A DNA stretch of 64,000 nt from Bacteroidota bacterium (GTDB lineage: Bacteria > Bacteroidota > Bacteroidia > Chitinophagales > BACL12), in assembly GCA_016715425.1 (NCBI GenBank), contig JADKAC010000005.1:832798-896797 (forward strand), given 5' to 3'. This document shows positions 32,976-64,000 of the stretch, in pieces. Both the position numbers and the translations under genes were made by a program. Under the pieces are notes generated by a model, which did not search any database, was not told the DNA's origin, and was given only the letters and a program-made list of their open reading frames with translations. The first letter of the stretch is position 1, and each line of letters starts with the position of its first letter.

Positions 32976-34115
32976 ATGAATCTTCTAGAAAAATTATCAG
33001 CACCCGGCCCGAAACGTATTCTTGCCCTGGATGGCGGTGGTATTAAAGGCGCACTCACACTTGGTTTTTTAAATAGAATTGAAACGATTCTTAGAAAAAA
33101 GCATCACAATGAAAACATGGTGCTCAGCAATTATTTCGATTTTATCGGCGGTACCAGTACAGGTTCTATTATTGCAGCGCTGCTTGCAATAGGACATAGC
33201 ACAGAATATATCACTAAACTTTATCGTGAATTAGGTGGAGAAATTTTTAAAGATGATCGTCCTGTAATTGGTGGGTTGTTTGTTCCAAAATTTAAATCGA
33301 AGAATTTAAAAGAACGATTGAAAAAAGAATTTGGTGATATGACTTTAGAAAGTGATAAAATTCTAACCGGACTATGCATACTTACAAAAAGAATTGATAC
33401 AGGAGGAACATGGCCAATAATTAATCATCCGAAGGCAAAATATTTTAAGGATAATAAAGATATTCTGTTGCGGGATGCTGTTCGTGCAAGTACTGCGGCT
33501 CCTTCTTATTTTGAACCGGAAAGATTACAGGTGAAATTAGATCAAGCCGGAGATTTTATTGATGGTGGTGTCAGTATGGCAAATAATCCTGCATTATATA
33601 TGTTTATGGTTTCTCAATTAAAAGGATTTCCATTTCATTGGAATACAGGAAAAGAAAATCTGCTGATAGTTTCGGTTGGAACTGGTGGTACTCGTGCAAG
33701 ATTTCCTTTGGATAAATTAGATATAGTGGACAAGGTGGTAAAGGCAAAACATTGGGCGGTAAGTTCAATTGAATTGTTGATGAGCGATGCTCATATTTTT
33801 AATCAAATGATGTTGCAATCTTTGGGTTATTCACCAACCAGAATTTCCATTGATAGAGAGATTGGCAATATGGAATTAGATTGTATCACCACAAATCCAT
33901 TGTTTACTTATTTGCGTTATGATATGCCTTTCGATCCCGTTATAATTGCACAGCATCCTACTGTTGCAGAATATATAAATAAGTCAAAAATAGATGTGTT
34001 TGATTTGCGTAAAATGGATAAAGCAAAAAATAGAGAGGTGTTAGGTGCTATTGGTGAAATTGCTGCAGATGAACAAGTGAAAGCCGATCATTTTTCAGAT
34101 AGTTTTAATATTTAA
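32976..34115 (+). CDS. patatin-like phospholipase
   Basis: Oxyanion motif LALDGGGIKG, nucleophile elbow GGTSTGS (GxSxG), and catalytic Asp motif FIDGGVSMANNP. The Ser-Asp dyad is complete. Confidence 0.9.
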   Translation: MNLLEKLSAPGPKRILALDGGGIKGALTLGFLNRIETILRKKHHNENMVLSNYFDFIGGTSTGSIIAALLAIGHSTEYITKLYRELGGEIFKDDRPVIGGLFVPKFKSKNLKERLKKEFGDMTLESDKILTGLCILTKRIDTGGTWPIINHPKAKYFKDNKDILLRDAVRASTAAPSYFEPERLQVKLDQAGDFIDGGVSMANNPALYMFMVSQLKGFPFHWNTGKENLLIVSVGTGGTRARFPLDKLDIVDKVVKAKHWAVSSIELLMSDAHIFNQMMLQSLGYSPTRISIDREIGNMELDCITTNPLFTYLRYDMPFDPVIIAQHPTVAEYINKSKIDVFDLRKMDKAKNREVLGAIGEIAADEQVKADHFSDSFNI

Positions 34116-34117
34116 TT

Positions 34118-34342
34118 ATGAAAAAATTTAAAAAAGGGGATATACCTGATTTAAAATTTGCTCAGGCAGTGAAGAAGCCTATTCCGGTAAAATGCATTCA
34201 ATTAGAAGAACCATTTGAAGTGGAAACAATGGAAGGAATTATGCAAGGTAAAGCGGGAGATTGGCTGATAGTGGGAATTCATGGAGAAATGTATCCTATT
34301 GATAAAACGATTTTCGAAAAAACATACGACATAAAAGAATAG
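34118..34342 (+). CDS. small protein, PGDYG-domain-like
   Basis: 74 aa. ...PVKCIQLEEPFEVETMEGIMQGKAGDWLIVGIHGEMYPIDKTIFEKTYDI matches my memory of the PGDYG small-domain pattern (PGDY replaced by AGDW). Starts 2 nt after the patatin stop. Confidence 0.4.
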   Translation: MKKFKKGDIPDLKFAQAVKKPIPVKCIQLEEPFEVETMEGIMQGKAGDWLIVGIHGEMYPIDKTIFEKTYDIKE

Positions 34343-34399
34343 GAAGTAATACCAACTTCACAGAATAGAATAAATTTAAATTAATTAAAACAAACTAAT

Positions 34400-35194
34400 A
34401 TGCTGGAATTTTCAAAAAGTATGCAACGATTAATTAGCATGAACAAACTTGAACAGGCTATTGATGAATTTCAAAATGTGTTGGATAGATTTAATCCGAT
34501 TACAGAAACGGATAAAATAGAACAACGGGATTTGCGAACGGCTATCATCGCAACTTCACAACGATTGTATTTAGTAAAAGAAAAAGAACAAAAAGGAAAT
34601 TTAAGTGATGACGAAATCATGCGTGAACGTCGTTCGGTAAGCAATTCATTTCTGGATATAATAAATGAGCTGGATAAATATGATGCAGTAAATGCATATT
34701 TAATTACTTGGGAAGATGAGCAAGCCTGGAGAAAAACAAATTCATTAAATGCCATTGATGCATATAAGGAATATTTAAATAAATATCCTACGGGTAAATA
34801 TGCAGATGATGCAAGAAAATTTATCAGCATGTTGAAGATGATGGAGGAACAAAAAATAAAAGAGAAGGCAGAAGAAATCTATACTCCTCCTTTACAAAGC
34901 CATGCACCAAAACAGGAACGTATTATTTACAATGATCCTCCAGTTGAAAACAGAACAATGTATGAAAAACAACATGCATCTGTGGGTTCCGGCGAAGAAC
35001 TTTCTAATGGCTTATTTATCGTTTTACTCATTGGTTGTATTATTCCAATTATAGGTATTGGTGCCGGTGCGTATTTTCTTTATACAAAAAATAACTCCGT
35101 TTATAAATATGATGAGCCTAGCCGTAAAAAAGGAAGAACACTTATGATAGTGGGAGGGATAATGGTATTTCTATATATTATCGGAGGCTATTGA
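34400..35194 (+). CDS. membrane protein: N-terminal helical adaptor (effector-associated-domain-like), central helical region, C-terminal 2-TM hairpin
   Basis: The N-terminal ~90 aa align with the C-terminus of the adjacent TIR protein (see findings). The C-terminus has two hydrophobic helices, LFIVLLIGCIIPIIGIGAGAYFLY and TLMIVGGIMVFLYIIGGY. Confidence 0.6.
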   Translation: MLEFSKSMQRLISMNKLEQAIDEFQNVLDRFNPITETDKIEQRDLRTAIIATSQRLYLVKEKEQKGNLSDDEIMRERRSVSNSFLDIINELDKYDAVNAYLITWEDEQAWRKTNSLNAIDAYKEYLNKYPTGKYADDARKFISMLKMMEEQKIKEKAEEIYTPPLQSHAPKQERIIYNDPPVENRTMYEKQHASVGSGEELSNGLFIVLLIGCIIPIIGIGAGAYFLYTKNNSVYKYDEPSRKKGRTLMIVGGIMVFLYIIGGY

Positions 35195-35195
35195 A

Positions 35196-35960
35196 ATGCC
35201 TGACTACAAAATCAATAATATCTTCATTTCCTACGCTCACGAAGATGAGCTGTTTAAGGATAAGCTTGTAAAACATTTATCGGGGTTAACAAGAAACGGC
35301 CAAATAAATTTATGGACAGATACGGTTATAGTTCCCGGTCAGGAATGGGATAATGAAATTAAGAATGCATTGCAACAAGCAGATATTATTTTGTTTTTAG
35401 TGAGTGCGGATTTTATGGCTTCCAATTATATTCATACTATCGAAATTGAAAATGCAATTGCAAAACATAATTCTGGTGAAATAATTATTGTTCCGGTAAT
35501 TATCCGTTCTTGCGATTTCCGGAGTTTGCCTTTAAAGAAATTTCAGGCATTGCCAAAAGGAAATGTTCCGGTTACAAAATGGAGCGATGAGGATGAAGCG
35601 TTTTTAAATATTGTAGAAGGTATTAAAATGATTTTGGCTCCGGTAAAAGTAAATACAGCGCCGTCACCAGTTGTAAACCTAGATTCACAGATAATTGCAA
35701 GTATATCTCCTGAAATTTCTAAACAAATTCGCAATTTTATTGCAACTAATAAAACAGAATTGGCAATAAACATTATGATGAAAGTTATTCCTGAAAATAA
35801 TGCAGATGCAAGTAATACCTGTATTGTGTTACAGGCAAAATATAATGAATTGCGTAAAAAGAATAGATTGGGAATTATGTCGTATGATGAATATTCAAGA
35901 TCCGTTTCGGGGGTGAATATTTCATTGCTTGAATTATTGGATACTTTAACTAATGCATGA
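35196..35960 (+). CDS. TIR-domain protein with a C-terminal helical adaptor domain
   Basis: IFISYAHEDELFKDKLVKHL...WTD..VPGQEWDNEIKNALQQADIILFLVSADFMASNYIHTIEIENAI is a TIR_2-type pattern that includes the conserved Glu position. The ~80-aa C-terminal region is helical. Confidence 0.85.
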   Translation: MPDYKINNIFISYAHEDELFKDKLVKHLSGLTRNGQINLWTDTVIVPGQEWDNEIKNALQQADIILFLVSADFMASNYIHTIEIENAIAKHNSGEIIIVPVIIRSCDFRSLPLKKFQALPKGNVPVTKWSDEDEAFLNIVEGIKMILAPVKVNTAPSPVVNLDSQIIASISPEISKQIRNFIATNKTELAINIMMKVIPENNADASNTCIVLQAKYNELRKKNRLGIMSYDEYSRSVSGVNISLLELLDTLTNA

Positions 35961-36928
35961 TGCAATTTCGAACTGAATTATTTCCGGCATCGGAAGCAAT
36001 TGTTATTAATTATAATTCTCGGATTTTTACTATCGGTTCTTGTTTCACTGAACATATTAGCAATACTCTTAGAACTTTAAAATTTAATGTGCTGTCAAAT
36101 CCATTTGGCATTGTATATAATCCGGTTTCAATTTGCAATCAATTGGAAAGAATTGTAAAGAGAAAGTATTTTATTGCTGACGATTTGTTTTTATCTGAAG
36201 GAGTTTATCGCACATTTGAAGCGCATAGCATAATGGCTGATTATACTCAAGAAGAAACATTGCAAAAAATAAATACTGTAATTGATGAATCACATATTAG
36301 GTTACAAAACACTACCCATGTCATCATTACTTTCGGTGCTTCGATTATACATGAGCTTAGTGAAACAAAATCTATAGTAGCAAATAATCACAAACAAGCG
36401 GCAAGTACATTTCAAAAACGTTTTCTCACAATTATTGAAATAGTAGAGGCATATCTGATGATAATATTTTATCTAAAGAAAATGAATGCGGATATTGAAA
36501 TTGTGTTTACCATAAGTCCTGTACGGCATATCAAAGATGGGCTTACGGATAATACAATAAGCAAGTCCTTACTGTTTGCTGCCTTGCATGAAATCTTAAA
36601 TAAAAAAGATATTTTTTATTTTCCTTCTTATGAATTAGTGATAGATGATTTGCGTGATTATCGTTTTTTTGAAAAAGATTTGGTGCATCCCAATGCAATG
36701 GCTATTGATTATGTATGGGAGAAATTTAAATCGTGGGCAATTAGTAAAGATTGTTATTCAACGATGGAAAATATTTCCAAAATAAATTCTGCAATTCAAC
36801 ACAGACCCTTTTTCAATAAAACTGAACAGCATAAGGAATTTAGAAAGAAAATGGTAGAATTTACTTTGCAATTGCAGAAAAAAAATCCGATGTTGAATTT
36901 CGAAAAGGAAATTGAATTCTTTACTTGA
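35957..36928 (+). CDS. GSCFA-family protein (SGNH-hydrolase-like, function unknown)
   Basis: The N-terminal FTIGSCFTEHI matches the GSCFA signature. The remainder is consistent in length (323 aa). ATGA overlap with the TIR gene. Confidence 0.65.
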   Translation: MMQFRTELFPASEAIVINYNSRIFTIGSCFTEHISNTLRTLKFNVLSNPFGIVYNPVSICNQLERIVKRKYFIADDLFLSEGVYRTFEAHSIMADYTQEETLQKINTVIDESHIRLQNTTHVIITFGASIIHELSETKSIVANNHKQAASTFQKRFLTIIEIVEAYLMIIFYLKKMNADIEIVFTISPVRHIKDGLTDNTISKSLLFAALHEILNKKDIFYFPSYELVIDDLRDYRFFEKDLVHPNAMAIDYVWEKFKSWAISKDCYSTMENISKINSAIQHRPFFNKTEQHKEFRKKMVEFTLQLQKKNPMLNFEKEIEFFT

Positions 36929-41373: not shown

Positions 41374-41502
41374 ACACCATGCATGATTTTTATTAAATTC
41401 TTATCGGTAAAATTAGTAAATAAACTTTGCGCTATCTACTTAAACAGGAAATCATAAGCATGCTGTTATTACATTCATGATAAAAGTTGCGAGGCGAATT
41501 AT

Positions 41503-50395: not shown

Positions 50396-51139
50396 ATGAT
50401 CTCCACATTAATTATTGAAAATGACAATAACTCTAGCAATACATTAGAGAGTTTACTTTGTGAAAGCTGTCCTCTAGTTTCCATAGTTGGCACAACCAAT
50501 AACTATACTGACGCAATTAATTGTATAGAAAAAATACATCCAGATTTAGTGTTTCTTGATGTAGATATGCCTCATCTTAAAGGGTTAGAAACCTTTAATC
50601 ATTATTATCCTTCTGCTTTCGAAATAATAGTGACTTCCAATTCGGAAAAATTTGCAATTCAAGCATTAAATTGCTGTGCTTCCGGGTATCTGCTTAAACC
50701 TATAAAACTGAAAAAGCTTATTACTTCAGTAAATTATGCAACTCAGAGAATACAAGATAAAAAAGTTAATAAGCAAAATAACGTAACGGACAATAACGCA
50801 TTGAAGAAATTTGTACTGCAAGAAATAATTGGAATACCAACAATTGAAGGTTACGAATACATTCCTGTTAAGGACATCATACGCTGCGAAGGAATGCAAA
50901 AATATACCCGTGTCATTACGGTTGACAAAACAGATCTGATAAGCTCTTATAATTTAGGTGAATTTATAAAACGATTGGATTGCCATGGTTTTTATTCACC
51001 CCATAAATCCCATCTTATTAATTTAAAAATGGTACGTAAGTATCACAACGAAGGAAATGTGCTTATGCTGAATGGTTCTTGGGTGCCTGTTGCCAAAAGA
51101 AGGAAAAAGGAATTTCTTGGCCAAATCGAACATCTTTAA
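50396..51139 (+). CDS. LytTR-family response regulator (orphan; no adjacent kinase gene)
   Basis: Receiver domain (DLVFLDVDMP, IIVTSNS, YLLKP) plus a LytTR DNA-binding domain (IPVKDIIRCEGMQKYTRVIT...SHLINLKMV). Confidence 0.8.
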   Translation: MISTLIIENDNNSSNTLESLLCESCPLVSIVGTTNNYTDAINCIEKIHPDLVFLDVDMPHLKGLETFNHYYPSAFEIIVTSNSEKFAIQALNCCASGYLLKPIKLKKLITSVNYATQRIQDKKVNKQNNVTDNNALKKFVLQEIIGIPTIEGYEYIPVKDIIRCEGMQKYTRVITVDKTDLISSYNLGEFIKRLDCHGFYSPHKSHLINLKMVRKYHNEGNVLMLNGSWVPVAKRRKKEFLGQIEHL

Positions 51140-51537: not shown

Positions 51538-53060
51538 ATGCCAATACAACCAACATATCCCGGAGTGTATGTTCAAGAAGTGCCCAGTGGGGTACGAACC
51601 ATTGCCGGAGTCAGCACATCCATTGCAATGTTTATCGGACGCACAAAATGGGGGCCTGTAAATGAGCCTATTTCATGTCTGAATTACACCGAATTCCTAC
51701 GCACATTCACTGAAGATATATCGCAGGGTGATATGGCAAGAGCTGTTCGGCTATTTTTTATAAATGGAGGTACTAGATGCTATGTTAATCGCATTGGGGC
51801 AAATATTGATACAGCATTGTTAACTATTCAAGATGGTGAAGGGGCTCCGGCAGATTCTTTAACAGTTTCAGCAAAATATCCTGGCGATTTAGGTGAATCA
51901 ATTCATTTGATAATTACCAACTCCACTACTGGTGTAAATGGCACTTTCGATCTTGAACTTTATAGAGATATTGCTGGAATTAAAACAGATAACCAGAAAT
52001 GGACAGGTCTGTCAATGAATCCTACTAATCAAAAGTATGCTCCCACGTATGTCAATTATAAATGGGCAGTTTTAACTTCAAATGAAATTGTTCCGGCCAC
52101 TGTTCCTCCAACTTTCAATCAATTTGCTCCTGATAATACAGCAGATACTCAACTGGCTGGAGGAAGCGATGGTATAACACCTTTAACCAATAATGAATAT
52201 ACTGCAGCCTATGATGTAATAGATAAGGAAGTAGATTTATTTAATCTTATGATTATTCCAAAAGATAATTCAATTGATCAGGAAGATGTTTGGGCATTGG
52301 CAAGTGAGTTTTGTTTGCGAAGACGAGCCTTCTTGTTAATGGATCCCCGTGAAGAATGGACAACTTATCAAGAAGCCACTCATGTTACGGATGGTGTTAA
52401 TTCACTCCGCACAAGTTTAGTTAAAGACCACAGTGCTGTATTTTCCCCCGATTAACCGTAAATGAAAATGGAGTTACTATTAATGTAGGACCCAGTGGTG
52501 CAATTGCCGGGCTAATGGCAAGAACAGATTCAAACCGTGGTGTTTGGAAAGCACCTGCAGGTACGGAAGCGGATCTTCGGGGAATTACTGGTCTTGAATA
52601 TCGTTTCAGTGATTCAGAAAACGGTGTAATGAATCCGAGAGGAATTAATATAATCCGGATTTTTCCAAACGGTATAGTAAATTGGGGTGCCCGGACTATG
52701 GATGGTGATGATGATTTTGCTAGTGAGTATAAATACATTCCCATTCGCCGAACAGCGCTGTTTATAGAAGAGAGTCTTTATCGAGGTTTAAAATGGGTTG
52801 TTTTCGAACCCAATGATGAGCCACTTTGGGCACAAGTACGATTGAATGTCGGAGCATTTATGCACAACTTGTTTCGTCAGGGAGCATTTCAGGGAACAAA
52901 GAAGCAAGATGCATACTTTGTGAAATGCGACAGTGAAACAACTACACAAAATGATATCAACTTAGGTATAGTAAATATTTGGGTAGGATTTGCTCCTTTA
53001 AAACCTGCTGAATTCGTAATTCTATATCTGCAACAAATGACTGGACAAATACAGGTTTAA
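51538..53060 (+). pseudogene. contractile tail sheath protein (eCIS Afp2-4/Pvc2-4-like), interrupted by a single-base frame disruption
   Basis: N-terminal PTYPGVYVQEVPSGVRTIAGVSTSIAMFIG, and the C-terminal part GPSGAIAGLMARTDSNRGVWKAPAG...NIIR...GARTM. The two parts sit in frames offset by -1 and join as ..SAVFSP|RLTVNENG.. if one base is added in the C5 run at 52445-52449. Confidence 0.85.
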
Positions 53061-53078
53061 CTTTTTAAAACAATAATT

Positions 53079-53585
53079 ATGGCGGTTCCTCAATTTGTGG
53101 TTAATGCGTATCGCTTTGACCCCTACAAAAATTTTAAATTCCGAATTCGTTGGGACGGAAAAGTCGTTGCGGGTGTGAGTAAAGTAACCGGATTAAAACA
53201 ATCCACCGAACCCGTAAAACATAGGGAAGGTGGTGATCCCAGCAGTTCCAGACTAAGCCCAAGTGTTTGGAGTTTCGAACCCATTACTCTTGATAGAGGA
53301 GTAACACATGATCCGGAATTTGAAAACTGGGCAAAAAAAGTGTGGAACGTGGAAGGCGACTCTGCTATCTCCTTAAAAGATTTTCGCAAGGATATTATTA
53401 TTGAATTGCTCAATGAGCAAGGTGTAGTTGCAAAAGCGTATAAAGTATATCGCTGTTGGGTTTCCACTTATCAGGCACTGCCAGAATTAGATGCCGGTGG
53501 AAATGCTGTCGCTATTGAGCAAATGGTTTTGCAAAATGAAGGTTGGGAGCGTGATGTAGAAATTCCTGAACCTTCGCAAACTTAA
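53079..53585 (+). CDS. contractile-system inner tube protein (T4 gp19 / Afp1-Afp5-like)
   Basis: YRFDPYKNFKFRIRWDGKVVAGVSKVTGLKQSTEPVKHREGGD...FEPITLDRGVTHD.EFENW is the conserved phage-tail-region tube signature. Confidence 0.85.
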   Translation: MAVPQFVVNAYRFDPYKNFKFRIRWDGKVVAGVSKVTGLKQSTEPVKHREGGDPSSSRLSPSVWSFEPITLDRGVTHDPEFENWAKKVWNVEGDSAISLKDFRKDIIIELLNEQGVVAKAYKVYRCWVSTYQALPELDAGGNAVAIEQMVLQNEGWERDVEIPEPSQT

Positions 53586-53595
53586 GAGATTGATA

Positions 53596-54357
53596 ATGAG
53601 TGATACAGAAGATTTGTTAATTCCATTGAGGTTAACTCCAGGAGTTGAGTCTATTACTTTAAGGAGTTTGAGAGGTAGGGATGAAATAGTAATTCAAAAT
53701 ACTGGAACAAAAAATCTGTTAAGTTTTCTCGAATCTTTAATTCAATCAGAGCAATCAACTAATAAGATTAATTCTTCCCAAATTGTAACTGCAGATCGAG
53801 ATCGTTTATTAGCACTCTTCTATATCTCTTTGTATGGTGCCAAAATTGAAAGTACGGTAAGCTGTAAAGAATGTGATCAGAAATTTGATCTTGATTTTAG
53901 GCTCGATGAGCTTCTTCAACATTATCAACCATCTACTAGCATTTTACTTAACAGTGGTAAATATGAATTAGAATCTGGAGTTTGTTTCAGGCTTCCCAAT
54001 GGTGAAGATGAAATTCTAATTGAAGGACTCAATATTGAAGAAGCAGAAAAGCAATTATTTGAAAGATGTTTACTCATGGGAGACATTGAAACGGATAAAG
54101 AAAAAGTTCAGCAGAAAATGGCGGAACTTGCACCCTTACTTACAATGAATATGCAAACCATTTGTCCGGAATGTAGCCATGTCCAAGAAGTTCGGTTTGA
54201 TATTCAATCCTTTTTCCTTACAAAACTCAATCAGGAAAAATCCACCTTATTAAGAGAAATACATTCAATAGCATCTCATTATCATTGGTCACATCAGGAA
54301 ATTTTGGAATTGCCCAGAAATTTAAGAAAACAATATGCTGCCTTAATTGAAAGCTGA
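53596..54357 (+). CDS. eCIS-associated hypothetical protein with a split 4-Cys zinc-ribbon-like site
   Basis: Sits directly after the tube gene. CKEC (..SCKECDQKF..) and CPEC (..ICPECSHVQ..) pairs lie about 90 aa apart. Confidence 0.5.
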   Translation: MSDTEDLLIPLRLTPGVESITLRSLRGRDEIVIQNTGTKNLLSFLESLIQSEQSTNKINSSQIVTADRDRLLALFYISLYGAKIESTVSCKECDQKFDLDFRLDELLQHYQPSTSILLNSGKYELESGVCFRLPNGEDEILIEGLNIEEAEKQLFERCLLMGDIETDKEKVQQKMAELAPLLTMNMQTICPECSHVQEVRFDIQSFFLTKLNQEKSTLLREIHSIASHYHWSHQEILELPRNLRKQYAALIES

Positions 54358-54359
54358 TT

Positions 54360-55120
54360 ATGAATAACTACTTTGCAAAGCTTGCAGCTAGAAACAATCA
54401 AGAAAATAATCATTCATTATTACCAATAATTTCAACAAATACTCTCAGTAATGAAAAAGCATTAATTGATGAGAGAGAGAAATTAAAGCCAACTGAATTT
54501 GCTCAGAAGAATGAAGATTTCCAACAAGACCTTTTAACTATTCAACCTCAACCGAAACAATCAATTTTGGAAAAAAATGAAACACCTGAGCTTAAGAATA
54601 ATAATGTTACTTCCTATTTATTAAAGCACATCGACAGAATAAATGATTTTGAAAATAAAGATGCTGCAATTAATAACCATTACACCTCTGAGGAAATGAA
54701 ATATGAAGACTCGGCAAAATCGCTTAAAAAACCTAAACAGCCATTAGGCAATCTAACTCCAAATTCCACAAAGAGTATTTTAAGCGAGGAGGATTATTCA
54801 AATAGTAAATCATATACTGAAGAGAATCCTGAATTTATTTTGCCTTCTCAAATTCAATCTCTAAGTTCCAATAAATTGATTTCAAATAAAAAGGAGTGGA
54901 GAGAATTGTTTCTAATATGGGGGCAAATAAAAACAAGCAACTGGTTCATAATAGAAATCAAATAGCAAGTCCTAAGCTTGTAATTGGAAAAATTATAGTT
55001 GAGATTATATCCCCCAAAACAATTTCTCCTCCCAAAATAATTACAAGGATTGTTTCTCAAAACGCTAAACCAAATTCATCAAAATCAAATAAACTGTCTT
55101 TTGGCTTAGGTCAAATGTAG
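54360..55120 (+). CDS. low-complexity eCIS protein encoded in two -1-offset overlapping frames (possible tape-measure or assembly-chaperone analogue)
   Basis: ORF 54360-54965 is N/S/K/E-rich. The -1 frame is open from 54890 to 55120 and encodes ...SPKLVIGKIIVEIISP...SFGLGQM. An AAA-AAG lysine pair lies at 54888-54893, exactly where the -1 frame opens. Confidence 0.45.
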
Positions 55121-55121
55121 T

Positions 55122-56390
55122 ATGGATTATACTTCTTTAAAAGAGATAAGCGAAACAATTATTGCAGTAATTCAAACAGCAGTAAATGATACTGAAAATT
55201 GGCCGCCAACTTTAAAAGTGCTTCCTGAATTGCTAAGGGATCAAAATAATGGAATTGGATTTTATTTATTTCATGCAAATGAAAGCAGCCACTATAAGAA
55301 TTTTCCTGCTCCCGGAAATGATAATCCTCCCGTGAAATATACCCCAATGGCATTGAATTTATTTTATCAATTATCGGCAAACAGCACAAATATTAATAAT
55401 GAAAAGGATGCCTATGATGAGCAGAATTTGATGAGTGTGGCAATGAAATCTTTACACGATCATTCCGAAATAAAAACAACTACCACCGGTAAAAAAATCA
55501 ATATCAAAATTACTCTTCAAACACTCACGCCAAGTGAATCTGTTCAATACTGGGCCGCAGCGGAATCACCCGTCAGGCTTTCGGCTTATTATGAAGTTTC
55601 CGCTGTATTTCTTGAGCCGGAAAAGCAAAAGTCCTATGCAGGCAGGGTACTTTCTTATGGCAATTTTGTATTCGTAAGAGGATTACCTCAAATTACTTCC
55701 AGCGAAAGTATAATTGAATATATGATGCCGGGAGAAGCTACTTTAAGTCAGGTAAAAATTAGTCCGGCTCAAGCAATTCCTGCATTTATGTTTCCTGATA
55801 TCACCAATAGTAAGGTGAGTTTTTTTGGAACAGGCTTTTATGGAAATAATATAAAATTGTTAGTGATAAGTCCTTTATGGCCGGAACCTGCCTTGGCAGA
55901 TGACTCTTGGCAAGCAACTATTGTTTCTGAAAATCTCTTCACTATTGTTGTTCAACCCACAGCAAATCTGGTGAATGCTTTAACACCTGTAGATATTATT
56001 CCGGGACTTTATTCAGCTCAAGTAAGTATCACTGAAGAAAGGACTTTACCTAATGGAACAATCAAAATATTTAATCATGTTTCTAACCAGTTTCCTTTTT
56101 CAGTAATGCCCCGAATCAGTGCGATTAGCCCTTTAATAGCGGGTGTCTTTTCAGTAACTTGTAATGTATTTCAACATACGGGATTAACTGTAGATGATAT
56201 TCAAGTTTATATCGGAGAAACAAAACTTGTATTATCTAATGCGGTTCTTCCGGCTTCAGGTGAATTTAAAATTACTTCAAATACCACTATTGATATTCAA
56301 ATACCAAGTGGTTTACCATCGGGTGAAATTGCATTGAGAATATTAATTAGAGGAATTGAATCAGAACCCCGATGGATTACAATTCCTTAA
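55122..56390 (+). CDS. DUF4255-domain protein (eCIS tail terminator/cap, Afp16-like) with an extended C-terminal beta-rich region
   Basis: N-terminal ...IGFYLFHANESSHYKNFP....PMALNLFYQLSA...EQNLMSVAMKSLHDHSEI matches the DUF4255 pattern. 422 aa. Confidence 0.65.
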   Translation: MDYTSLKEISETIIAVIQTAVNDTENWPPTLKVLPELLRDQNNGIGFYLFHANESSHYKNFPAPGNDNPPVKYTPMALNLFYQLSANSTNINNEKDAYDEQNLMSVAMKSLHDHSEIKTTTTGKKINIKITLQTLTPSESVQYWAAAESPVRLSAYYEVSAVFLEPEKQKSYAGRVLSYGNFVFVRGLPQITSSESIIEYMMPGEATLSQVKISPAQAIPAFMFPDITNSKVSFFGTGFYGNNIKLLVISPLWPEPALADDSWQATIVSENLFTIVVQPTANLVNALTPVDIIPGLYSAQVSITEERTLPNGTIKIFNHVSNQFPFSVMPRISAISPLIAGVFSVTCNVFQHTGLTVDDIQVYIGETKLVLSNAVLPASGEFKITSNTTIDIQIPSGLPSGEIALRILIRGIESEPRWITIP

Positions 56391-56413
56391 ATGAAATAGT
56401 CAAGTTTAAATAA

Positions 56414-58504
56414 TTGATTGATACAAACGAAAATATAGTTTTTGAAGGTGTAAATATCCAAAGGGATGATTTAGCTGGGCTTGTAGTAGCAAGAATTCGA
56501 TTGCTTTCTCAAAGGCGAATTTCCTGGCTTCGCAAAATTTGGAGTGAAAATTCCAATTCCGGCAATACTGAATTTAATGCCCATAGCGAAGTAGATGGAT
56601 ACCTGATTGATAAAGATATTCCTGTTAAAGAAAGTGAATGGTATGCGCAAGATTCTGAAATACAAGAGATATCATTTCTCTTAAATGAAACCGAACAAGC
56701 CTTGTTAGGTAATCCCGATTTGCGGTTAAATATTCTCGCTGATATTTTTAAATTAAATAGTTTAGAAATTGATATTCTTCAAATATGTCTGGCTATTTCC
56801 ATTGAACCAAATATGGGGAGAGTATTTGCTTATTTGCAAGATAATTCATCAAAAAACTATGTAACTGATTCTTTAGTTGCAAGACTTTTTGGCTATGGCA
56901 ACTGGATTATTTTACCCGCTTCATCATCTTTAAAAATTTGGGGACTAATTAAAGAAAATGTTTCTCAACAAAGCGAACCTGCAAGATTTGAATGTGATCC
57001 TTTTATTAAAAACTGGCTATTAGGATTGGATGCCATTGATGATTCTTTAATCAGCATTTGTAATTTCCAATCGCCAGAAAATCCTTTAAAAAACTGGCCG
57101 GTTCACAATACAGTATCAGATATTAAAAGGATAACGAATAACCAGCCTCAAAATAAACTTAGAGTTTTTGTGGAAGGGTCAGAGGGATGCGGTCGTAAAA
57201 CCTTTGCAGCTGTAGTAAGTAAAAATTTGGGATTGCCGCTAATTGCAATAAATGCAGATAGAATTCCTGAAAACCGTTGGCAACTCTTTTATATGCTTGC
57301 ACAACGACAGGCTTTTCTATTAAATGCAGCCGTGGCCTGGTATGGAGAAACAATGCAAGAGCATTTTTGGCCTTCGGATATTCCTTCCTGCAATTTGCAA
57401 TTTGTAATAGGAGAGTCTGATGAATCTCTTGTTACTAATAGTCATTTTATTGATTTGCGAATAACACTACCAAATATTTCTTATGAAGAAAGGTTAAGCC
57501 TCTGGCGAAAATTTGTTCCGCAATCATTGGAATGGGAAAAAAGGGAAATGGAAGAAATGGTTTTAAGGTATGAAACTACTGCAGGGCAAATTGTTTCCAT
57601 AGGTAAAAAAAGAACGGCGACAATTGAAAATGCCTATGAGGCTTTGCGGGCAGATTCCGGTCGGAGGTTGGGAAGTTTAGCACAGCAAATGCCCGGTACG
57701 TTTTCATTTGATGATTTGGTCTTACCGGATTATACTAGAAAAGGAATTGAAGATTTTGTTTTTGAAGCAACGGAAAGGATTACCTTTTGGGAGCAATCAA
57801 ATACCAAACGTCTTTTCCCTTATGGTCGTGGTCTTATCGGGTTATTTGCCGGTGAATCCGGAACAGGGAAAACAATGGCTGCGCAAGTAATTGCGGCTGA
57901 GTTAAAATTAGATTTATTTCGAATTGATCTTTCTAATGTAGTGAGCAAGTATATTGGTGAAAGTTCAAAAAATATAGAACGCATTTTAGCAAGAGCCAAA
58001 AACATGAATGTGGTTTTGCTTTTTGATGAAGCCGATTCGATCTTTGGGAAAAGAACTGATATTAAAGATGCCCATGACCGTTATGCAAATACGGATACAA
58101 ATTACTTGTTGCAGGCAATCGAATCTTATCCAGGTATAGTAATTCTTTCGAGTAATAAAAAATCAAATATTGACAGTGGGTTTACCAGAAGAATTCGATA
58201 TGTACTGGAATTTTCCAAACCTGATGCAGCGCAAAGACTGCTGATTTGGAAAAAAATATTAGGAGAAATGACAAATAGCCAAACACTTTTAAAACTTGAA
58301 AATGAATTGATTAAGCTTTCTGCTTTAATGGAAATTACAGGTGCCCAAATAAAACAAACTATATTATCAGCATTATTTATTGCACGACGGGAAAAATCAG
58401 AATTGCATATTTCACATTTACTTTCCGGACTTGAAAGAGAGATGGCAAAAGAGGGCAGAGGACTGGGTAAACAGATGCAAGAAAATTTCACCAAAACCTT
58501 ATGA
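56414..58504 (+). CDS. AAA+ ATPase (eCIS Afp15-like)
   Basis: Walker A GESGTGKTMAAQVIA, Walker B VLLFDEADSIFGKR, and SKYIGESSKNIERIL (CDC48/FtsH-like AAA). A long N-terminal region is present, as in Afp15-type proteins. TTG start. Confidence 0.85.
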   Translation: MIDTNENIVFEGVNIQRDDLAGLVVARIRLLSQRRISWLRKIWSENSNSGNTEFNAHSEVDGYLIDKDIPVKESEWYAQDSEIQEISFLLNETEQALLGNPDLRLNILADIFKLNSLEIDILQICLAISIEPNMGRVFAYLQDNSSKNYVTDSLVARLFGYGNWIILPASSSLKIWGLIKENVSQQSEPARFECDPFIKNWLLGLDAIDDSLISICNFQSPENPLKNWPVHNTVSDIKRITNNQPQNKLRVFVEGSEGCGRKTFAAVVSKNLGLPLIAINADRIPENRWQLFYMLAQRQAFLLNAAVAWYGETMQEHFWPSDIPSCNLQFVIGESDESLVTNSHFIDLRITLPNISYEERLSLWRKFVPQSLEWEKREMEEMVLRYETTAGQIVSIGKKRTATIENAYEALRADSGRRLGSLAQQMPGTFSFDDLVLPDYTRKGIEDFVFEATERITFWEQSNTKRLFPYGRGLIGLFAGESGTGKTMAAQVIAAELKLDLFRIDLSNVVSKYIGESSKNIERILARAKNMNVVLLFDEADSIFGKRTDIKDAHDRYANTDTNYLLQAIESYPGIVILSSNKKSNIDSGFTRRIRYVLEFSKPDAAQRLLIWKKILGEMTNSQTLLKLENELIKLSALMEITGAQIKQTILSALFIARREKSELHISHLLSGLEREMAKEGRGLGKQMQENFTKTL

Positions 58505-58737
58505 TACAAATAGATGAATTGCAAATCAGGATGTCGGGCAAAAGCGAATATGATGGAAATACAATAGCCAAACAAGTTGCTGAAAGATTGGCTGAATCTC
58601 TTCCGGAATATTCAGGCACTCACCATATTCCTCAATTAAATGTGCACATGCAATTGAAAGGTTCTAATGATACCACTCAACTTGCAAATCAAATTGCCGA
58701 ACAGATTATCCGCCAAATAAAACTTACCACTTTTTAA
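58501..58737 (+). CDS. small hypothetical protein between the ATPase and DUF4157 genes
   Basis: 78-aa ORF. ATGA overlap with the ATPase stop, and it ends 1 nt before the next ATG. Confidence 0.45.
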   Translation: MIQIDELQIRMSGKSEYDGNTIAKQVAERLAESLPEYSGTHHIPQLNVHMQLKGSNDTTQLANQIAEQIIRQIKLTTF

Positions 58738-58738
58738 A

Positions 58739-59871
58739 ATGAATGCGCTTTTACATCATAACAATTTAGCTGTAAAACCTGCAATGACTTTTGCTAAAAC
58801 AAAACCAGTTGTTCAGGCAAAACTCACTGTAAATGAGCCGGGAGATATCTATGAACAGGAAGCCGAAGCAATGGCAGACAGGGTAATGCGAATGTCTTCC
58901 AACGAAGCAACAAAACCCGTTACAGGTTTAATTGGCAAATCCTTACAAAGAAAATGTGCTCATTGCGAAGAAGAGGAAAAAAAGAAAAACCCATTATGCG
59001 CAAGGCTGAAGCAGGCAATTCGGGTATGTCCGTTTCAACTTCATTTGCTTCTTCTTTAAATGCTTCAAAAGGAGGTGGCTCTCCATTGCCGGATGGAACA
59101 AGGAGTTTTATGGAAAACGCTTTTAGTGCAGATTTTTCGGAGGTAAGAATTCATACAGGAAGCAAGGCTTCTGAAATGAGTAGAGGAATAAATTCAAAAG
59201 CTTTTACGCATGGGAATGATATTTATTTTAATGAGTGCCAATACTCTCCCAATACCCATTCTGGAAAAAGTTTGCTGGCACATGAGTTGACGCACACTAT
59301 ACATCAAAATACAAATCAAAAATCCATCGGAAGTATTCAACGTTTTGCGGATTGCAATGTTTCTCAAAATCAAATGATCAGAGATGGATTGACTCGTGCA
59401 AGAAGAAGATCAACTCGTGCAATTCGTGCGGTTACTAACTTGCAAAACGGGAGTGATAGAAGTGCAGCTGGATCTTTAGCTCGTTTCTTTGGTGAAGTAA
59501 CCTCAGCTCAAATTACAATCATACTAGATAGAATGAATGCTGCCGATGGCCAGTTGAACAATCCAGCACTTTGGAAATGCGATACGGCTGCTACTTATTC
59601 TCATTGTGGTCCACCAAATCCTTGGTGCGCCGGAACCTTATGTCCTTCAATTGGTGCCATTACCCATTTATGTCCTAGGGTTTTTAACGAGGAAAGCTCA
59701 ATGGGATGTGTAGAAAGCAGCAGATCTATATTATTACAACACGAAGCATTGCGAGCTGCAGGTGTATGTGGCGGTGTTCAACCACCTGGAGATATGACAT
59801 CTCCCGGATCAATAAATAATATTTTTTCCTATTCTCGCTTTATGTATAGTATTGCAAGTGGAAGTAGATGA
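58739..59871 (+). pseudogene. DUF4157 (eCIS-associated zincin-like) effector-type protein, copy 1, with a 1-nt frame disruption
   Basis: GGGSPLPDGTRSFMENAFSADFSEVRIHTG...AFTHGNDIYF...LLAHELTHTIHQ. The frame breaks at 58985-58992: AAAAACCC here versus AAAAAGCCC in the paralog at 59896. The C-terminal ~185 aa are Cys-rich and unique. Confidence 0.8.
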
Positions 59872-59895
59872 AAATCGAAAGTTGAAAGAAAAATC

Positions 59896-60813
59896 ATGAT
59901 TCATAATCTTAAAATTAATGATGCTCCAAAAGTTAATAATAAAATAATTAGAGCTAAATCATTTATTAATTCCCCGGGAGATATTTATGAGCAAGAAGCG
60001 GATGCAATGGCATACCGGGTAATGCGCATGTCATCTCAAGAATTTGAAAAACCTGTTACAGGTTTAATAGGTAAATCCTTACAAAGAAAATGTGCTCATT
60101 GCGAAGAAGAAGAAAAAAAGAAAAAGCCCATTATGCGAAAGTCAGAAGCAGGTAATTCTGGTATATCTGTTTCTTCTTCTTTTGCAGCTTCTTTAAATTC
60201 ATCCAAAGGTGGTGGTTCACCATTGTCACAGGGAACAAAAAGTTTTATGGAAAATGCGTTTAGTACTGATTTTTCTGCTGTTAAAATTCATACTGATGTA
60301 CAAGCTTCGGAATTGAGTAAGAGTATTAATGCAAAAGCATTTACGTATGGAAATGATATTTATTTTGGAGATGGACAATATAATCTTGGATCAGTTGATG
60401 GAAAATATTTACTTGCTCATGAGTTGACACATACACTTCAACAAAATATTGATTCCGGATTACTTCAACGAATTCAAGATGGTAGGGCAACCGGCTGGAA
60501 GCGATGGTATGAATTTGTTCAACAAGCAGCAAATAATTTTTATGAGAAAGAATTAAATATTGATATGAGTTTGCAAGAAAATAGAGCCAATATTGTGCAT
60601 AGCTGCAAACATGAAAATAATTGGAACCAGTGTAAAACAGAGAATTATTCGAATAATAGTAATAGCCCACAAGTAACTGTGAGCTGGAGACCAGAAAATA
60701 AGGAGGTTACTGTTATTAATTTACCCCACTTCTGTAGATATACATATGTGCATGATTCAGGTGGATACATTTTTACAAAATTAAATTGTGAAACTTTAGC
60801 TGTTTATACTTAA
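59896..60813 (+). CDS. DUF4157 (eCIS-associated zincin-like) effector-type protein, copy 2, intact
   Basis: GGGSPLSQGTKSFMENAFSTDFSAVKIHTD...AFTYGNDIYF...LLAHELTHTLQQ. The N-terminal ~190 aa are paralogous to copy 1. The C-terminal ~115 aa are unrelated to copy 1. Confidence 0.85.
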   Translation: MIHNLKINDAPKVNNKIIRAKSFINSPGDIYEQEADAMAYRVMRMSSQEFEKPVTGLIGKSLQRKCAHCEEEEKKKKPIMRKSEAGNSGISVSSSFAASLNSSKGGGSPLSQGTKSFMENAFSTDFSAVKIHTDVQASELSKSINAKAFTYGNDIYFGDGQYNLGSVDGKYLLAHELTHTLQQNIDSGLLQRIQDGRATGWKRWYEFVQQAANNFYEKELNIDMSLQENRANIVHSCKHENNWNQCKTENYSNNSNSPQVTVSWRPENKEVTVINLPHFCRYTYVHDSGGYIFTKLNCETLAVYT

Positions 60814-60865
60814 TATGGTTGCTTTATTCACTACTGAAATAAAAAATATTATAAATTAATAACCC

Positions 60866-61588
60866 ATGCCCACCGGCTACTCCCGCTCACCTAAACTTTT
60901 AAAAGGTGCTCTCATAGAATTCTCTGAGCGCTTTATTGGTCCTGTTCCAAATGTGATTGTATTCCAATACAATCCGGAAACGATGACTCGGGCATTGGAA
61001 GTATGGAGTCAAGGTGGAGGCGGAGAATCAACCACCAGCAGCGAAACTTCTCATACAGCCCAACCCTTTGATCCACCCGAAACTTTTACTCTTGCTCTTG
61101 AACTTGATGCTACCGATGCACTGGAAAATCCGGCGTCTCATCCTGTGGCTGCAATTTCTGGCGTGGCAGACAGAATTGCTGCTATGGAAATGCTTTTGTA
61201 TCCTCAGGGTGATAGTTTATTGGGTGGCTTAATGGGTTCAATTTCAAGTTCACTTGGCTTGGGAGGTGGCGGAGCAGTGCAGCCTGTTCCTCGGGGTACT
61301 GTTCCGGTAGTGTTATTTGTTTGGGGGCCTGGTCGCATTATACCAGTAAGACTTACCACTTTTTCTGTTGAAGAACAGGCCTATTCACCATTATTATATC
61401 CCATTCAGGCAAAAGTGAGTTTAGGATTAAAAATTCTAACTCCGAGAGATTTCCCGGAAACCAATAGAAAATTGAGCGAAGAACTTGCCATAACCGCCTT
61501 TAATTTTACCCGCAAACAAAAAGAAGTTTTAGCTGCTTCCAACATGGCCAATAGTGTTGAGTCAATATTGGGAATGCTTCCTTTTTAA
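60866..61588 (+). CDS. contractile-injection-system tube-like / tube-initiator-like protein (Afp7 N-terminal-domain-like)
   Basis: LLKGALIEFSERFIGPVPNVIVFQYNPETMTRAL ... VPVVLFVWGPGRIIPVRLTTFSVEEQAYSPLLYPIQAKVSLGLKIL is a pattern I associate with CIS tube-family proteins encoded next to LysM/gpX genes. Confidence 0.5.
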   Translation: MPTGYSRSPKLLKGALIEFSERFIGPVPNVIVFQYNPETMTRALEVWSQGGGGESTTSSETSHTAQPFDPPETFTLALELDATDALENPASHPVAAISGVADRIAAMEMLLYPQGDSLLGGLMGSISSSLGLGGGGAVQPVPRGTVPVVLFVWGPGRIIPVRLTTFSVEEQAYSPLLYPIQAKVSLGLKILTPRDFPETNRKLSEELAITAFNFTRKQKEVLAASNMANSVESILGMLPF

Positions 61589-61610
61589 TTTCAATCTACA
61601 ACATCAAACT

Positions 61611-61883
61611 ATGTTTTCCGAAAAAAGCAGATACAAAAATGCCACGCAATATGAAGTGACCGACCATAGGGGAAGAACTGTTAAGGTGGTTGCAACACCA
61701 ACCGCTCCACAACAAACCATTAAAGGTTACCACTTGCTTAAACAAGGTCAGCATATTGATCATTTAGCTTCTCTATATCTAAATGATGCCGCCGGATTCT
61801 GGCGAATTGCCGAGGCTAACGATTCTATATTGCCCGAATCACTTACTGAACAATCTGAAATTGCTATACCGAATAAAACTTAA
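61611..61883 (+). CDS. LysM-like tail protein (P2 gpX-like)
   Basis: YHLLKQGQHIDHLASLYLNDAAGFWRIAEANDSILPESLTEQSEIAIP is the LysM/gpX pattern. ATG 61611 is preferred over the track start 61554. Confidence 0.55.
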   Translation: MFSEKSRYKNATQYEVTDHRGRTVKVVATPTAPQQTIKGYHLLKQGQHIDHLASLYLNDAAGFWRIAEANDSILPESLTEQSEIAIPNKT

Positions 61884-61886
61884 ATT

Positions 61887-62953
61887 TTGGGTTTAGATAT
61901 TCTGATATGTGTTGATGATATTCCCAATGAAAATCTTACTCAAAAAGTTAGTAGTGTAGAAGTATATGAGAAAATGGATCAAAACACCAGCTACAAACTG
62001 AATTTTGCTGTGGACATTTGCGATGGAGATATTGCACAAAATATAGAAGCAGATACTGCACCTGCAAAAATTTTAAGTATTCTCGCACATGTAAATGATA
62101 GTCTGATTTGCCTGGTAAAAGGGCCGGTAACCACACAGCAATCTCGTCTTAATCATGGAGGCGCCGGATCTTCATTAAATATAGAAGGCGAGGACACAGG
62201 AAAAAATCTTGATCATGCACCAATATTTCAGATTACAGATTCAGGAACTGACGCCGATATTGTAACTACCATTATATCTAATGCTGACCAAATGATTCCT
62301 GATGTAGAATCAACACCTGATTCACTGCATGCAGAAGAAAACCACAGCCATGTACAGCGTGAATCTAATTTGAGCTTATTAAGAACACTGGCTCGTCGCA
62401 ATGGCTTTCATTTTTGGATTACATACACAAACGAAGGAATGGCTACAGGTCATTTCCGGTCACGCAGTTTAGATGGGCAGCCGGCAAATACTTTAATTGT
62501 AAATCATGAGAATAACAATATTGATTTGTTACAGGTAAATTCCGATTCAACCCGCCCTTCAAGAACCGAAGGCAGGCAAATTGATCTTAGAACGCTGAGT
62601 GTTATCGGTGGTGAAACTACTTTGGAAGATTCTACTTTAGGGTCAAGTGGATTGCGGGAGTTAAATGGCACGGAACAACAATCCATTCAACTGGCACCTG
62701 CAGTTGATGATGCTGGAGCCTTAACCGCCAGAAGCAGGGAGCTTTAAGAGATGCGCAATGGTTTATAAATGCCACTTGCCAAACCAGTCTTCACCGACTT
62801 TGCAATATCGTTCGGTTTCATACTTTAGTCCAAGTTCAAGGTGCCGGAAGTCGCCATAGCGGCAATTATTATGTTACGGGTGTAAGACATAAAATTGATG
62901 CGGTCGGCCATGTAATGGATTTAGAATTGGAAAGAAACGCATGGGGAAATTAA
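61887..62953 (+). pseudogene. phage late-control gpD-like baseplate hub protein, with a 1-nt frame disruption near the C-terminus
   Basis: The main ORF ends at 62747. The -1 frame (open from 62711) encodes GALRDAQWFINATCQTS...VQVQGAGSRHSGNYYVTGVRHKIDAVGHVMDLELERNAWGN, the conserved gpD C-terminus. One extra G in the GGG run at 62737-62739 would join the two frames. Confidence 0.7.
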
Positions 62954-62989
62954 CTATTAAGTAAAATGGCAATAAACACACTATAAAGA

Positions 62990-63694
62990 ATGGACGATCA
63001 ATTAGTTCAACAATTATTAGAGTGGACACGAAATAAGTTTTTTGGCAAGTATCGTGGTTTAGTAACTGATAATAATGATGCGACCAACAGAGGTAGGGTT
63101 AAGGTAAATGTTCCCGCCGTTTTTAATGAGTTAGAAGTTTGGGCTTTGCCTTGCCTGCCTTACACTGGAGATAACGTTGGTTTTTACACAATTCCTGATT
63201 CCGGTGCCGGAGTTTGGGTTGAGTTTGAAGGAGGTGATCCCTCTTTTCCTATTTGGACAGGTGGCTTTTGGGCTGATGGTCAATTACCAACTAATGAACA
63301 AGGCAGCGGCGCTACGCCTACTTTACGCATGTTACGGAGTGAAAAAGGATTGATGATAACCTTTAACGACGACGCCGAAGTGCTTACTTTAAGTGATGAA
63401 AACGGCAGTAATATCATGACATTTGAAGTACAGTCGGGCAAAATAAAAATACAAGCTAACATAAAAGTTGTTGTGGAAGCTCCATTAATTGAATTGGTTG
63501 AAAATTCAACACATCCCTTGGTTTTTGGCGATAACCTGCTTCAATATCTTAACCAGATAGTTCAAACATTTAATACACACATGCATCCCGGAGAATTAGC
63601 AGCCGGAGTAATACCGGTAACACCTATGACTCCGGTACCGCCAATGCCACCGGCCACACCAAGTCTTTTATCTAACAAGGTTACTACAGGATAA
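62990..63694 (+). CDS. baseplate spike protein (gpV / gp5 OB-fold, VgrG-like)
   Basis: FGKYRGLVTDNNDATNRGRVKVNVPAVF...WALPCLPYTG...GFYTIPDSGAGVWVEFEGGDPSFPIWTGGFW is the gpV/gp5 N-terminal signature. Confidence 0.8.
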   Translation: MDDQLVQQLLEWTRNKFFGKYRGLVTDNNDATNRGRVKVNVPAVFNELEVWALPCLPYTGDNVGFYTIPDSGAGVWVEFEGGDPSFPIWTGGFWADGQLPTNEQGSGATPTLRMLRSEKGLMITFNDDAEVLTLSDENGSNIMTFEVQSGKIKIQANIKVVVEAPLIELVENSTHPLVFGDNLLQYLNQIVQTFNTHMHPGELAAGVIPVTPMTPVPPMPPATPSLLSNKVTTG

Positions 63695-63705
63695 AATAAA
63701 ATAAT

Positions 63706-63993
63706 ATGGCTCTCGATTCAGGAACAAAATCACCCGGAACATCTTTATATAGTGGCAGTATGGCTGATGCTATGGAAAAAGCATTTGTGGAAGAATGGCC
63801 TACTGTGATGGGGGATGATGCCGATTTACCCGCATCGAGTGAACAGTTAAATCTTATGTTCAGAGCTATTGCGCAAGGTGTTATCAGACATCTGAAACAA
63901 AATAGTGAATCCTTGAAAGTTACTGTTACAGTTCAAATTGGGCCCACGACATATACAGGTACAGGTTCTGTAACAGATATTGAAATCAGTTAA
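63706..63993 (+). CDS. small hypothetical eCIS-locus protein
   Basis: 95-aa ORF following the spike gene. It has no PAAR motifs, and I do not recognise the family. Confidence 0.4.
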   Translation: MALDSGTKSPGTSLYSGSMADAMEKAFVEEWPTVMGDDADLPASSEQLNLMFRAIAQGVIRHLKQNSESLKVTVTVQIGPTTYTGTGSVTDIEIS

Positions 63994-64000
63994 ATTATAT

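Follow-up and report, generated by a model that had tools for sequence, protein, structure and literature searches.

Two tandem genes with a DUF4157 domain are embedded in a contractile injection system (CIS) cluster of a Bacteroidota bacterium (Chitinophagales, BACL12). The analysed stretch of 64,000 nucleotides, hereafter the window, covers positions 832,798 to 896,797 of the forward strand of contig JADKAC010000005.1 (GenBank assembly GCA_016715425.1). The cluster is of the extracellular type (eCIS). The genes, termed cassette 1 (c1) and cassette 2 (c2), are co-directional and flanked by CIS neighbours: sheath, gp19 tube, Pvc16_N, AAA ATPase and Phage_base_V spike. A gap of 24 nt separates c1 from c2, and 52 nt lie between c2 and the next structural gene. 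Both are read here as probable cargo genes, composed of a shared N-terminal module and an individual C-terminal tail. Their features are the following.

58739..59871, + strand: c1, with N-terminal region, eCIS_core/DUF4157 domain and aspzincin-like tail, broken by a 1-nt deletion
58937..58974, + strand: 38-nt exact repeat, c1 copy, encoding KSLQRKCAHCEEE
58976..58992, + strand: frameshift site GAAAAAAAGAAAAACCC, with A5 in the window and A6 in seven other assemblies
59083..59313, + strand: eCIS_core (DUF4157, PVC-metallopeptidase) of c1 by Pfam, residues 44-120 of the reading frame 58954-59871
59281-59298: HELTHT of c1
59335..59343, + strand: IQR junction motif of c1
59344..59868, + strand: c1 tail of ~175 aa, a divergent aspzincin/M35-like fold by Foldseek, profile and alignments
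59896..60813, + strand: c2, intact, 305 aa, with N-terminal region, eCIS_core and small alpha+beta tail
60073..60110, + strand: 38-nt exact repeat, c2 copy
60220..60447, + strand: eCIS_core of c2 by Pfam, residues 109-184
60418-60435: HELTHT of c2
60463..60471, + strand: LQR junction motif of c2
60472..60810, + strand: c2 tail of ~113 aa, one helix and a six-stranded sheet in the AlphaFold2 (AF2) model, with a family found by HMMER

Both proteins follow a four-part plan: a probably disordered N-terminal region of ~100 residues, an eCIS_core domain with HExxH, a linker ending in (I/L)QR, and a variable C-terminal domain. The central domain matches PF13699 with 103 bits (E=9.6e-30) in c1 and 98.8 bits (E=2e-28) in c2, at a curated cutoff of 22 bits. 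This family, formerly DUF4157, presently bears the Pfam name eCIS_core, "eCIS core domain". The HExxHxxQ signature is exact in c2 (HELTHTLQQ); in c1 (HELTHTIHQ) the first Q is replaced by H. H182, E183 and H186 are invariant in an alignment of 17 homologues. A solved structure resembling the DUF4157 domain was obtained in neither PDB fold search.

From PGD to HELTHT, the two modules align over 154 residues without a gap, and 120 of the 154 amino acids (78%) and 360 of 462 nucleotides are identical. A first-pass annotation, made from the letters alone, had described tandem DUF4157 paralogs with a common protein string and an exact 38-nt DNA match. The paralogs are confirmed as two co-directional genes matching PF13699, and the repeat was found at both positions given above. 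The common string holds as the 78% identical module; as one c1 protein it does not, because the string crosses a frameshift and c1 is not a single open reading frame (ORF) in the window. A 38-nt exact match was seen in 0 of 100 shuffles. In codon-pair permutations, the 38-nt run has p=0.016 and a 53-nt stretch with one mismatch p=0.005. Since codon-pair shuffles rarely reach either length, the local DNA identity lies above the module background.

In the AF2 models, the predicted local distance difference test (pLDDT) stays under 50 at residues 1-35 and 54-99 in c1 and at residues 1-28, 48-73 and 75-92 in c2. These N-terminal stretches are probably disordered, as judged from the models. Between them lies a conserved, amphipathic helix, PGDIYEQEAxAMAxRVMRM (37-55 in c1, 30-48 in c2). 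The DUF4157 domain follows with a pLDDT of 68-91 in c1 and 80-91 in c2, and then a short linker of low confidence (193-201 and 186-201, respectively). The otherwise disordered N-terminal region contains a CxxC pair (CAHC of RKCAHCEEEEKKKK; 58955-58966 and 60091-60102), continued by an acidic and then a basic run (CxxC-EEEEKKKK). This stretch is kept across many homologues, Q70 being invariant and R71 and C73 nearly so in 17 sequences. It falls in the part with the highest DNA identity between c1 and c2.

Counted from HELTHT, the tails comprise ~190 aa in c1 and ~125 aa in c2; counted from (I/L)QR, 175 and 113 aa. They share no sequence similarity (BLASTP E=0.54), and their predicted folds differ. 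The c1 tail is modelled mostly at a pLDDT of 70-94 as a helical, aspzincin-like fold. The seven best Foldseek matches of this model in the PDB are all M35 structures (1eb6, 1ge6, 1g12, 2x3a-c) with a probability of 1.0. Target-normalised template modelling (TM) scores reach 0.66-0.67 for the single-domain 1eb6, 1ge6 and 1g12, and 0.38-0.41 for the longer AsaP1 chains 2x3a-c. A family profile built from 15 c1 tails retrieves 1eb6 over its full length (E=2.2e-7), 2x3a (1.3e-4) and 1g12 (4.5e-4). The features matched between this profile and deuterolysin (1eb6) include the cysteines, the HE in the active-site helix and, at the C-terminus, the N..SY helix. Full-length homologues of c1 are 37-59% identical. 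At the level of predicted fold and profile, the c1 tail is an aspzincin (M35).

The tail of c1 in the window has no Pfam match even at E<=10. Among its homologues, PF14521 (cutoff 30 bits) scores 27.3 bits on P0006, 32.7 on P0084 and 54.2 on P0061; the allele in assembly L012, introduced below, scores 18.2. HEALR replaces the HExxH motif, and the exchange of the second zinc histidine for arginine is conserved in the c1 subfamily. The more distant relatives P0060, P0061, P0076 and P0088 retain HExxH. The GTxDxxYG segment, which provides the aspartate zinc ligand, is absent from the c1 subfamily and appears as an alignment gap opposite FTVDEYSG of P0060 and P0088. An aspartate in the nearby PPGD of the c1 tail is not conserved. 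Some activity may remain in the c1 tail, because the His and Glu of HEALR are invariant. Compared with the known aspzincins (MEROPS M35; PF14521, PF02102; deuterolysin 1EB6, Grifola peptidyl-Lys metalloendopeptidase 1GE6, AsaP1 2X3A), the c1 tail shares the predicted fold and differs by HEALR, by the deleted GTxDxxYG segment and by a score of the window protein below every Pfam threshold.

The c2 tail is modelled at a pLDDT of 84-95 over most of its length. An exhaustive HMMER profile search of 1.84 billion sequences identified a family of nine cluster representatives with a conserved Cys and the motif CRY.Y...G...TK..C. Its members are mostly DUF4157 fusions carrying this tail at the extreme C-terminus. 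An initial view of the c2 tail as an orphan, after an empty word-indexed search, was dropped when P0045 and the exhaustive search gave this small family. Pfam at E<=10 returned only sub-threshold noise for the c2 tail (Reprolysin_3, 14 bits). In Foldseek searches of PDB and BFVD, the c2 model gave nothing at E<=0.001; the matches were heterogeneous and either short or of high rmsd. The Pfam scans linked neither tail to a toxin family; the toxin catalogue of Zhang et al. (2012) was not compared.

A search with the N-module found 4458 homologues. Among the best 120, 118 contain HELxH; BLASTP sorts the tails of these 118 into 63 clusters, of which 42 have a single member. Of 80 species-representative loci, spread over Bacteroidota, Cyanobacteria, Actinomycetota, Proteobacteria, Acidobacteriota and methanogenic Archaea, 41 have tandem arrays of two to four DUF4157 cores. 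Between the N-modules of c1 and c2, identity is 72.6%. For proteins with a tail 54-59% identical to that of c1, N-module identity to c1 is only 41-49%. The relationships of N-modules and tails therefore conflict, and a handle with swappable tails fits the data.

The border between both parts is marked by a short motif. [ILVM]QR is located 10-16 residues after HExxH in 93 of the 118 homologues, at a background of 1.5% of 45-residue windows. An upstream motif, [ILVM]Q[RK]K, is present in 111 of the 118. The similarity between cassettes ends directly after (I/L)QR. On sequence grounds, (I/L)QR may be a release site for the DUF4157 peptidase, a cassette junction, or both. The CdiA-CT and Rhs polymorphic toxins carry the demarcation motifs VENN and PxxxxDPxGL. 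Likewise, a short conserved motif stands where the constant region meets the variable toxin, as (I/L)QR does here. These toxins differ in their secretion route, the cassettes are without an immunity gene, and the role of (I/L)QR is a putative one.

Related assemblies show the exchange of cassettes at this locus. The closest one, L001 (Chitinophagales metagenome-assembled genome GCA_049290595.1), was located by an exact-protein look-up. Over 14.1 kb it matches the window at 99.3% identity; its c2 is identical and its c1 is intact at 377 aa. Window and L001 contain the array c1+c2. A longer array, c0+c1+c2, is present in L002-L005 and also in L006. The additional cassette is placed upstream of c1.

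L002 7703-8827, also L004 and L005: c0, third cassette, 374 aa, with a weak DUF4347-like tail

The contig end truncates c0 in L003 and L006; window and L001 lack this cassette. L012 carries c1+c2'+c3 and a 171-aa ORF (L012 6001-10986), which replace window positions 60583-60865 between flanks ~99.6% identical to the window. Its c2' has 312 aa and a tail only 57% identical to that of c2. The c3 product is a DUF4157 protein of 959 aa with a weak Anthrax_toxA match, and the 171-aa ORF encodes a membrane protein with a weak 8xMP match. The c3 ORF as called begins inside the conserved helix (MADRVMRM); its N-terminal region is maybe truncated or its start miscalled.

Across strains whose cassette arrays differ, the flanks are ~99% identical. 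At sites separating c0 from c1 in the three-cassette strains, the c1 N-modules of window and L001 alternate between c0-type and c1-type blocks, with breakpoints differing between the two. These arrays and mosaics give direct evidence that the repeated N-module undergoes homologous recombination and gene conversion. A gene-conversion tract from c2 to c1 at 59088-59130 was considered and rejected, as the same sites match c0; the tract belongs to a c0/c1 mosaic whose donor is unassignable. Deletion and insertion of cassettes cannot be polarised from these strains.

The first-pass annotation had taken the module for a loading or delivery handle with exchangeable tails and had suggested recombination-driven cassette exchange. 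The exchange is substantiated by the strain-variable arrays and mosaic c1 N-modules. The handle agrees with 63 tail clusters in 118 homologues, with the caveat that loading in AlgoCIS (see below) needs the disordered N-terminal region and not DUF4157. The survey for the same N-module with other tails, which it had put forward as a check, produced these 63 clusters. Its description of the tails as unrelated stood up to a check of tail homology (BLASTP, predicted folds). The Foldseek comparison it recommended led to M35 structures for the c1 tail and to nothing convincing in PDB or BFVD for the c2 tail. A speculative resemblance of the c1 tail to aspzincins proved right at fold and profile level, as did the remark on HEALR. 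DUF4157 as an eCIS-associated domain fused to toxins, which it had stated, is published (PMC3482391, section 13; PMC8213781; PMC11297309) and reflected in the Pfam name.

The CIS cluster begins at ~51.5 kb and continues past the window end. According to Pfam scans, its order is sheath, tube, Pvc16_N cap, AAA+ ATPase, cargo genes, tube-like protein, and spike with baseplate. The features around the cassettes are listed below.

50396-51139: LytTR-type response regulator, directly upstream of the sheath gene
51538..64000, + strand: contractile injection system (eCIS-type) cluster, from Pfam matches and sister-locus gene tables
51538-53060: sheath (Pfam), split into 51538-52455 and 52515-53060 by a frameshift
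from 53079: gp19-type tube (Pfam)
between the gp19-type tube and Pvc16_N cap genes: T4_baseplate-like gene (Pfam)
from 55122: Pvc16_N cap protein (Pfam)
56414..58504, + strand: AAA+ ATPase of 696 aa, Pvc15/Alg15 type (PF00004, E=1.6e-26, and a WHD variant domain)
58501..58737, + strand: 78-aa ORF, called in every related assembly
from 60866: CIS_tube-like protein (Pfam)
from 62990: Phage_base_V spike (Pfam)

The gp25 and large baseplate genes lie past the window end and are known from sister-locus gene tables only. The LytTR-type regulator is a plausible regulator of the CIS cluster. The AAA+ ATPase gene stands directly upstream of the cassettes. Its product is the presumed cargo loader, by analogy to Alg15 (bioRxiv 10.64898/2026.05.27.728243). 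The 78-aa ORF overlaps the ATPase stop codon, stops one base ahead of c1 and is without a Pfam match. Patatin, EAD11, TIR-EAD11 and GSCFA genes stand in a row at 32976-36928; they resemble a conflict or defence module unrelated to the cassettes.

In the window, c1 is split into an ORF at 58739-59059 (106 aa) and an ORF in the -1 frame at 58954-59871. An A is missing in GAAAAAAAG-AAAAACCC at ~58985, and the repeat finder gives a spacing of 1136 between c1 and c2 before this site and 1137 after it. Intact c1 of 377 aa with the in-frame A6 is present in seven related assemblies (L001-L006, L012). Compared with all sister assemblies, the window shows four single-base homopolymer deletions, each breaking a CIS gene.

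52441: homopolymer deletion in the sheath gene
54888: homopolymer deletion in a 253-aa gene
58985: homopolymer deletion in c1
62737: homopolymer deletion in a baseplate gene

The frameshift in c1 probably represents an uncorrected homopolymer error of the assembly. A real lesion is possible, at clearly lower probability: the CIS may be decaying to pseudogenes in this strain, or the A-run may be a site of slippage or phase variation. All four deletions lie within CIS genes between 52.4 and 62.7 kb, and no coding indel was found in the ~34 kb compared upstream (15.8-50 kb). Such clustering has a probability of roughly p=0.005 under a uniform error model, taken as the fourth power of the CIS share of the compared sequence. 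The c1 site, G_AAA_AAC preceded by an A7 run, resembles slippery sequences. However, all four changes are 1-nt homopolymer deletions, a typical long-read error, and L010 and L011, assemblies from the same population with contigs from hundreds of kb up to several Mb, show like defects in other genes. Regional strain heterogeneity could defeat polishing locally. The seven other assemblies keep A6 and an intact c1, and the shift is therefore no conserved programmed event. A programmed -1 frameshift or slippage as a conserved feature of the c1 A-run was rejected on this ground and on account of the three further homopolymer deletions in neighbouring genes. Outside coding sequence, sister assemblies carry extra 7-nt segments at 37088 and 37201 (intergenic), the one at 37201 being a duplicate of the adjacent AAGCAAT. 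Single-base homopolymer differences occur at 41387 and 40050 (non-coding).

With a probability of about 0.8, c1 and c2 are modular cargo (effector) genes of the contractile injection system, following the PVC-metallopeptidase/DUF4157 plan. In the proposed mechanism, the N-terminal region would be a loading signal read by the upstream AAA+ ATPase, by analogy to AlgoCIS Cgo1 and Cgo2, and the ATPase would thread the cargo into the tube lumen. The zincin-like DUF4157 domain would most likely act after loading, e.g. in the release or maturation of the tail near (I/L)QR. The active effector would be the tail. Tails would be gained, lost and re-paired as cassettes recombine and undergo gene conversion with one another; recombination is expected because each cassette opens with nearly the same DNA. 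ATPase loading, (I/L)QR processing and tail toxicity are inferred steps of this scheme.

The closest published counterpart is AlgoCIS of Algoriphagus machipongonensis. Its cargo genes Cgo1 and Cgo2 lie side by side; both products contain DUF4157 behind similar disordered N-terminal regions, and they differ in the C-terminal domain. The two proteins occupy the lumen of the tube and leave it when the particle contracts, and assembly proceeds in their absence (PMC8894135). Loading needs the N-terminal region and the AAA+ protein Alg15, while the C-terminal domain is dispensable (bioRxiv 10.64898/2026.05.27.728243). The present locus likewise has two adjacent genes in a Bacteroidota CIS cluster with an AAA+ ATPase, and both pairs possess a disordered N-terminal region, a central DUF4157 and differing C-terminal domains; the comparison is by description, not by sequence. 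No Algoriphagus locus was among the 80 loci from the genome scan. One C-terminal domain of the AlgoCIS pair is predicted to be metalloprotease-like, as here. The proteins differ in length (498 and 1228 aa in AlgoCIS, 377 and 305 aa here) and in their tail families. Loading, lumen location and toxicity are established for Cgo1 and Cgo2 only.

In polymorphic toxins, PVC-metallopeptidase forms the constant N-terminal part, to which recombination has attached toxin domains of great diversity (Zhang et al., 2012, PMC3482391). It was proposed as an autoproteolytic releasing peptidase, and the immunity gene is often missing (PMC3482391). Constant HExxH-bearing N-termini, variable C-termini, several genes per genome, recombination and the frequent lack of an immunity gene are common to these toxins and the cassettes. 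The earlier work is a survey across genomes (PMC3482391), whereas the shuffling described here occurs among near-identical strains at one locus. DUF4157 is the main marker of eCIS toxins (Geller, 2021; Danov, 2024; PMC8213781, PMC11297309). The eCIS-associated toxins (EATs), e.g. EAT14 of Chitinophaga rupis, likewise combine an N-terminal DUF4157 with a C-terminal effector domain and are encoded within or beside an eCIS operon of Bacteroidota (PMC8213781, PMC11297309). EATs are typically found at the operon 3' end, whereas the present cassettes occupy the middle of the cluster, with the ATPase gene on one side and the tube and baseplate genes on the other. The architecture thus is that of the published model, and the idea is not new. 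New here are the degenerate aspzincin tail, the small c2 tail family, the cassette shuffling at strain level and the (I/L)QR boundary.

Several points weigh against a cargo role. No cognate immunity gene adjoins either cassette. The c2 tail is small and without a recognisable catalytic motif, and the c1 tail, having lost the canonical zinc ligands of aspzincins, may lack protease activity. With c1, the sheath and two other cluster genes frameshifted, the system in the window would, at face value, be non-functional. DUF4157 is dispensable for AlgoCIS loading (bioRxiv 10.64898/2026.05.27.728243). The toxicity of Cgo1 is independent of its metallopeptidase motifs.

Two other accounts of the gene pair were weighed. 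Plain tandem duplication, with C-termini that drifted apart and no exchange of cassettes, would yield adjacent, co-directional N-modules with 78% identity, as observed. It would not account for tails with different predicted folds and no sequence similarity, nor for tail families that sit on far more divergent N-modules elsewhere. Cassette number and N-module mosaics vary, moreover, among strains with ~99% identity, and this account is very improbable. A structural or assembly function, in which the DUF4157 proteins are core parts, chaperones or plugs and the tails adaptor domains, is unlikely, with somewhat more in its favour. It agrees with the Pfam name "eCIS core domain", with a c2 tail lacking an enzymatic signature and with a c1 tail devoid of canonical zinc ligands. 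DUF4157 genes also often adjoin toxins without DUF4157, and a chaperone in trans has been proposed (PMC11297309). Yet 63 unrelated C-termini in 118 close homologues and a strain-variable gene number are unexpected for structural parts. Cgo1 and Cgo2 fill the lumen, leave on contraction and are dispensable for assembly (PMC8894135), and several DUF4157 fusion proteins were toxic in experiments (PMC8213781, PMC11297309). The interpretation as modular cargo is preferred to both.

A combined reading is offered tentatively. In it, (I/L)QR would serve eCIS cargo both as the site of autoproteolytic release and as the cassette junction, much like VENN in CdiA; the c2 tail would represent an undescribed small effector fold, and the HEALR aspzincin of c1 a repurposed effector without the canonical zinc site.

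The architecture was described in 2012 and dissected in AlgoCIS in 2022 and 2026, and the main contribution of the locus is a pair of uncharacterised tails in an already very large catalogue. The short proteins (305 and 377 aa) with a defined loading module, defined by analogy, could interest engineers of eCIS protein delivery. Strains that are nearly identical but differ in cassette number (two, three or four) and carry mosaics form a natural series, in which the exchange is visible and the junctions are mappable. (I/L)QR offers a concrete candidate for the site at which the DUF4157 peptidase acts. If any of the readings of the junction, the c2 tail or the c1 tail is true, DUF4157 would gain a function open to testing, namely (I/L)QR cleavage after injection.

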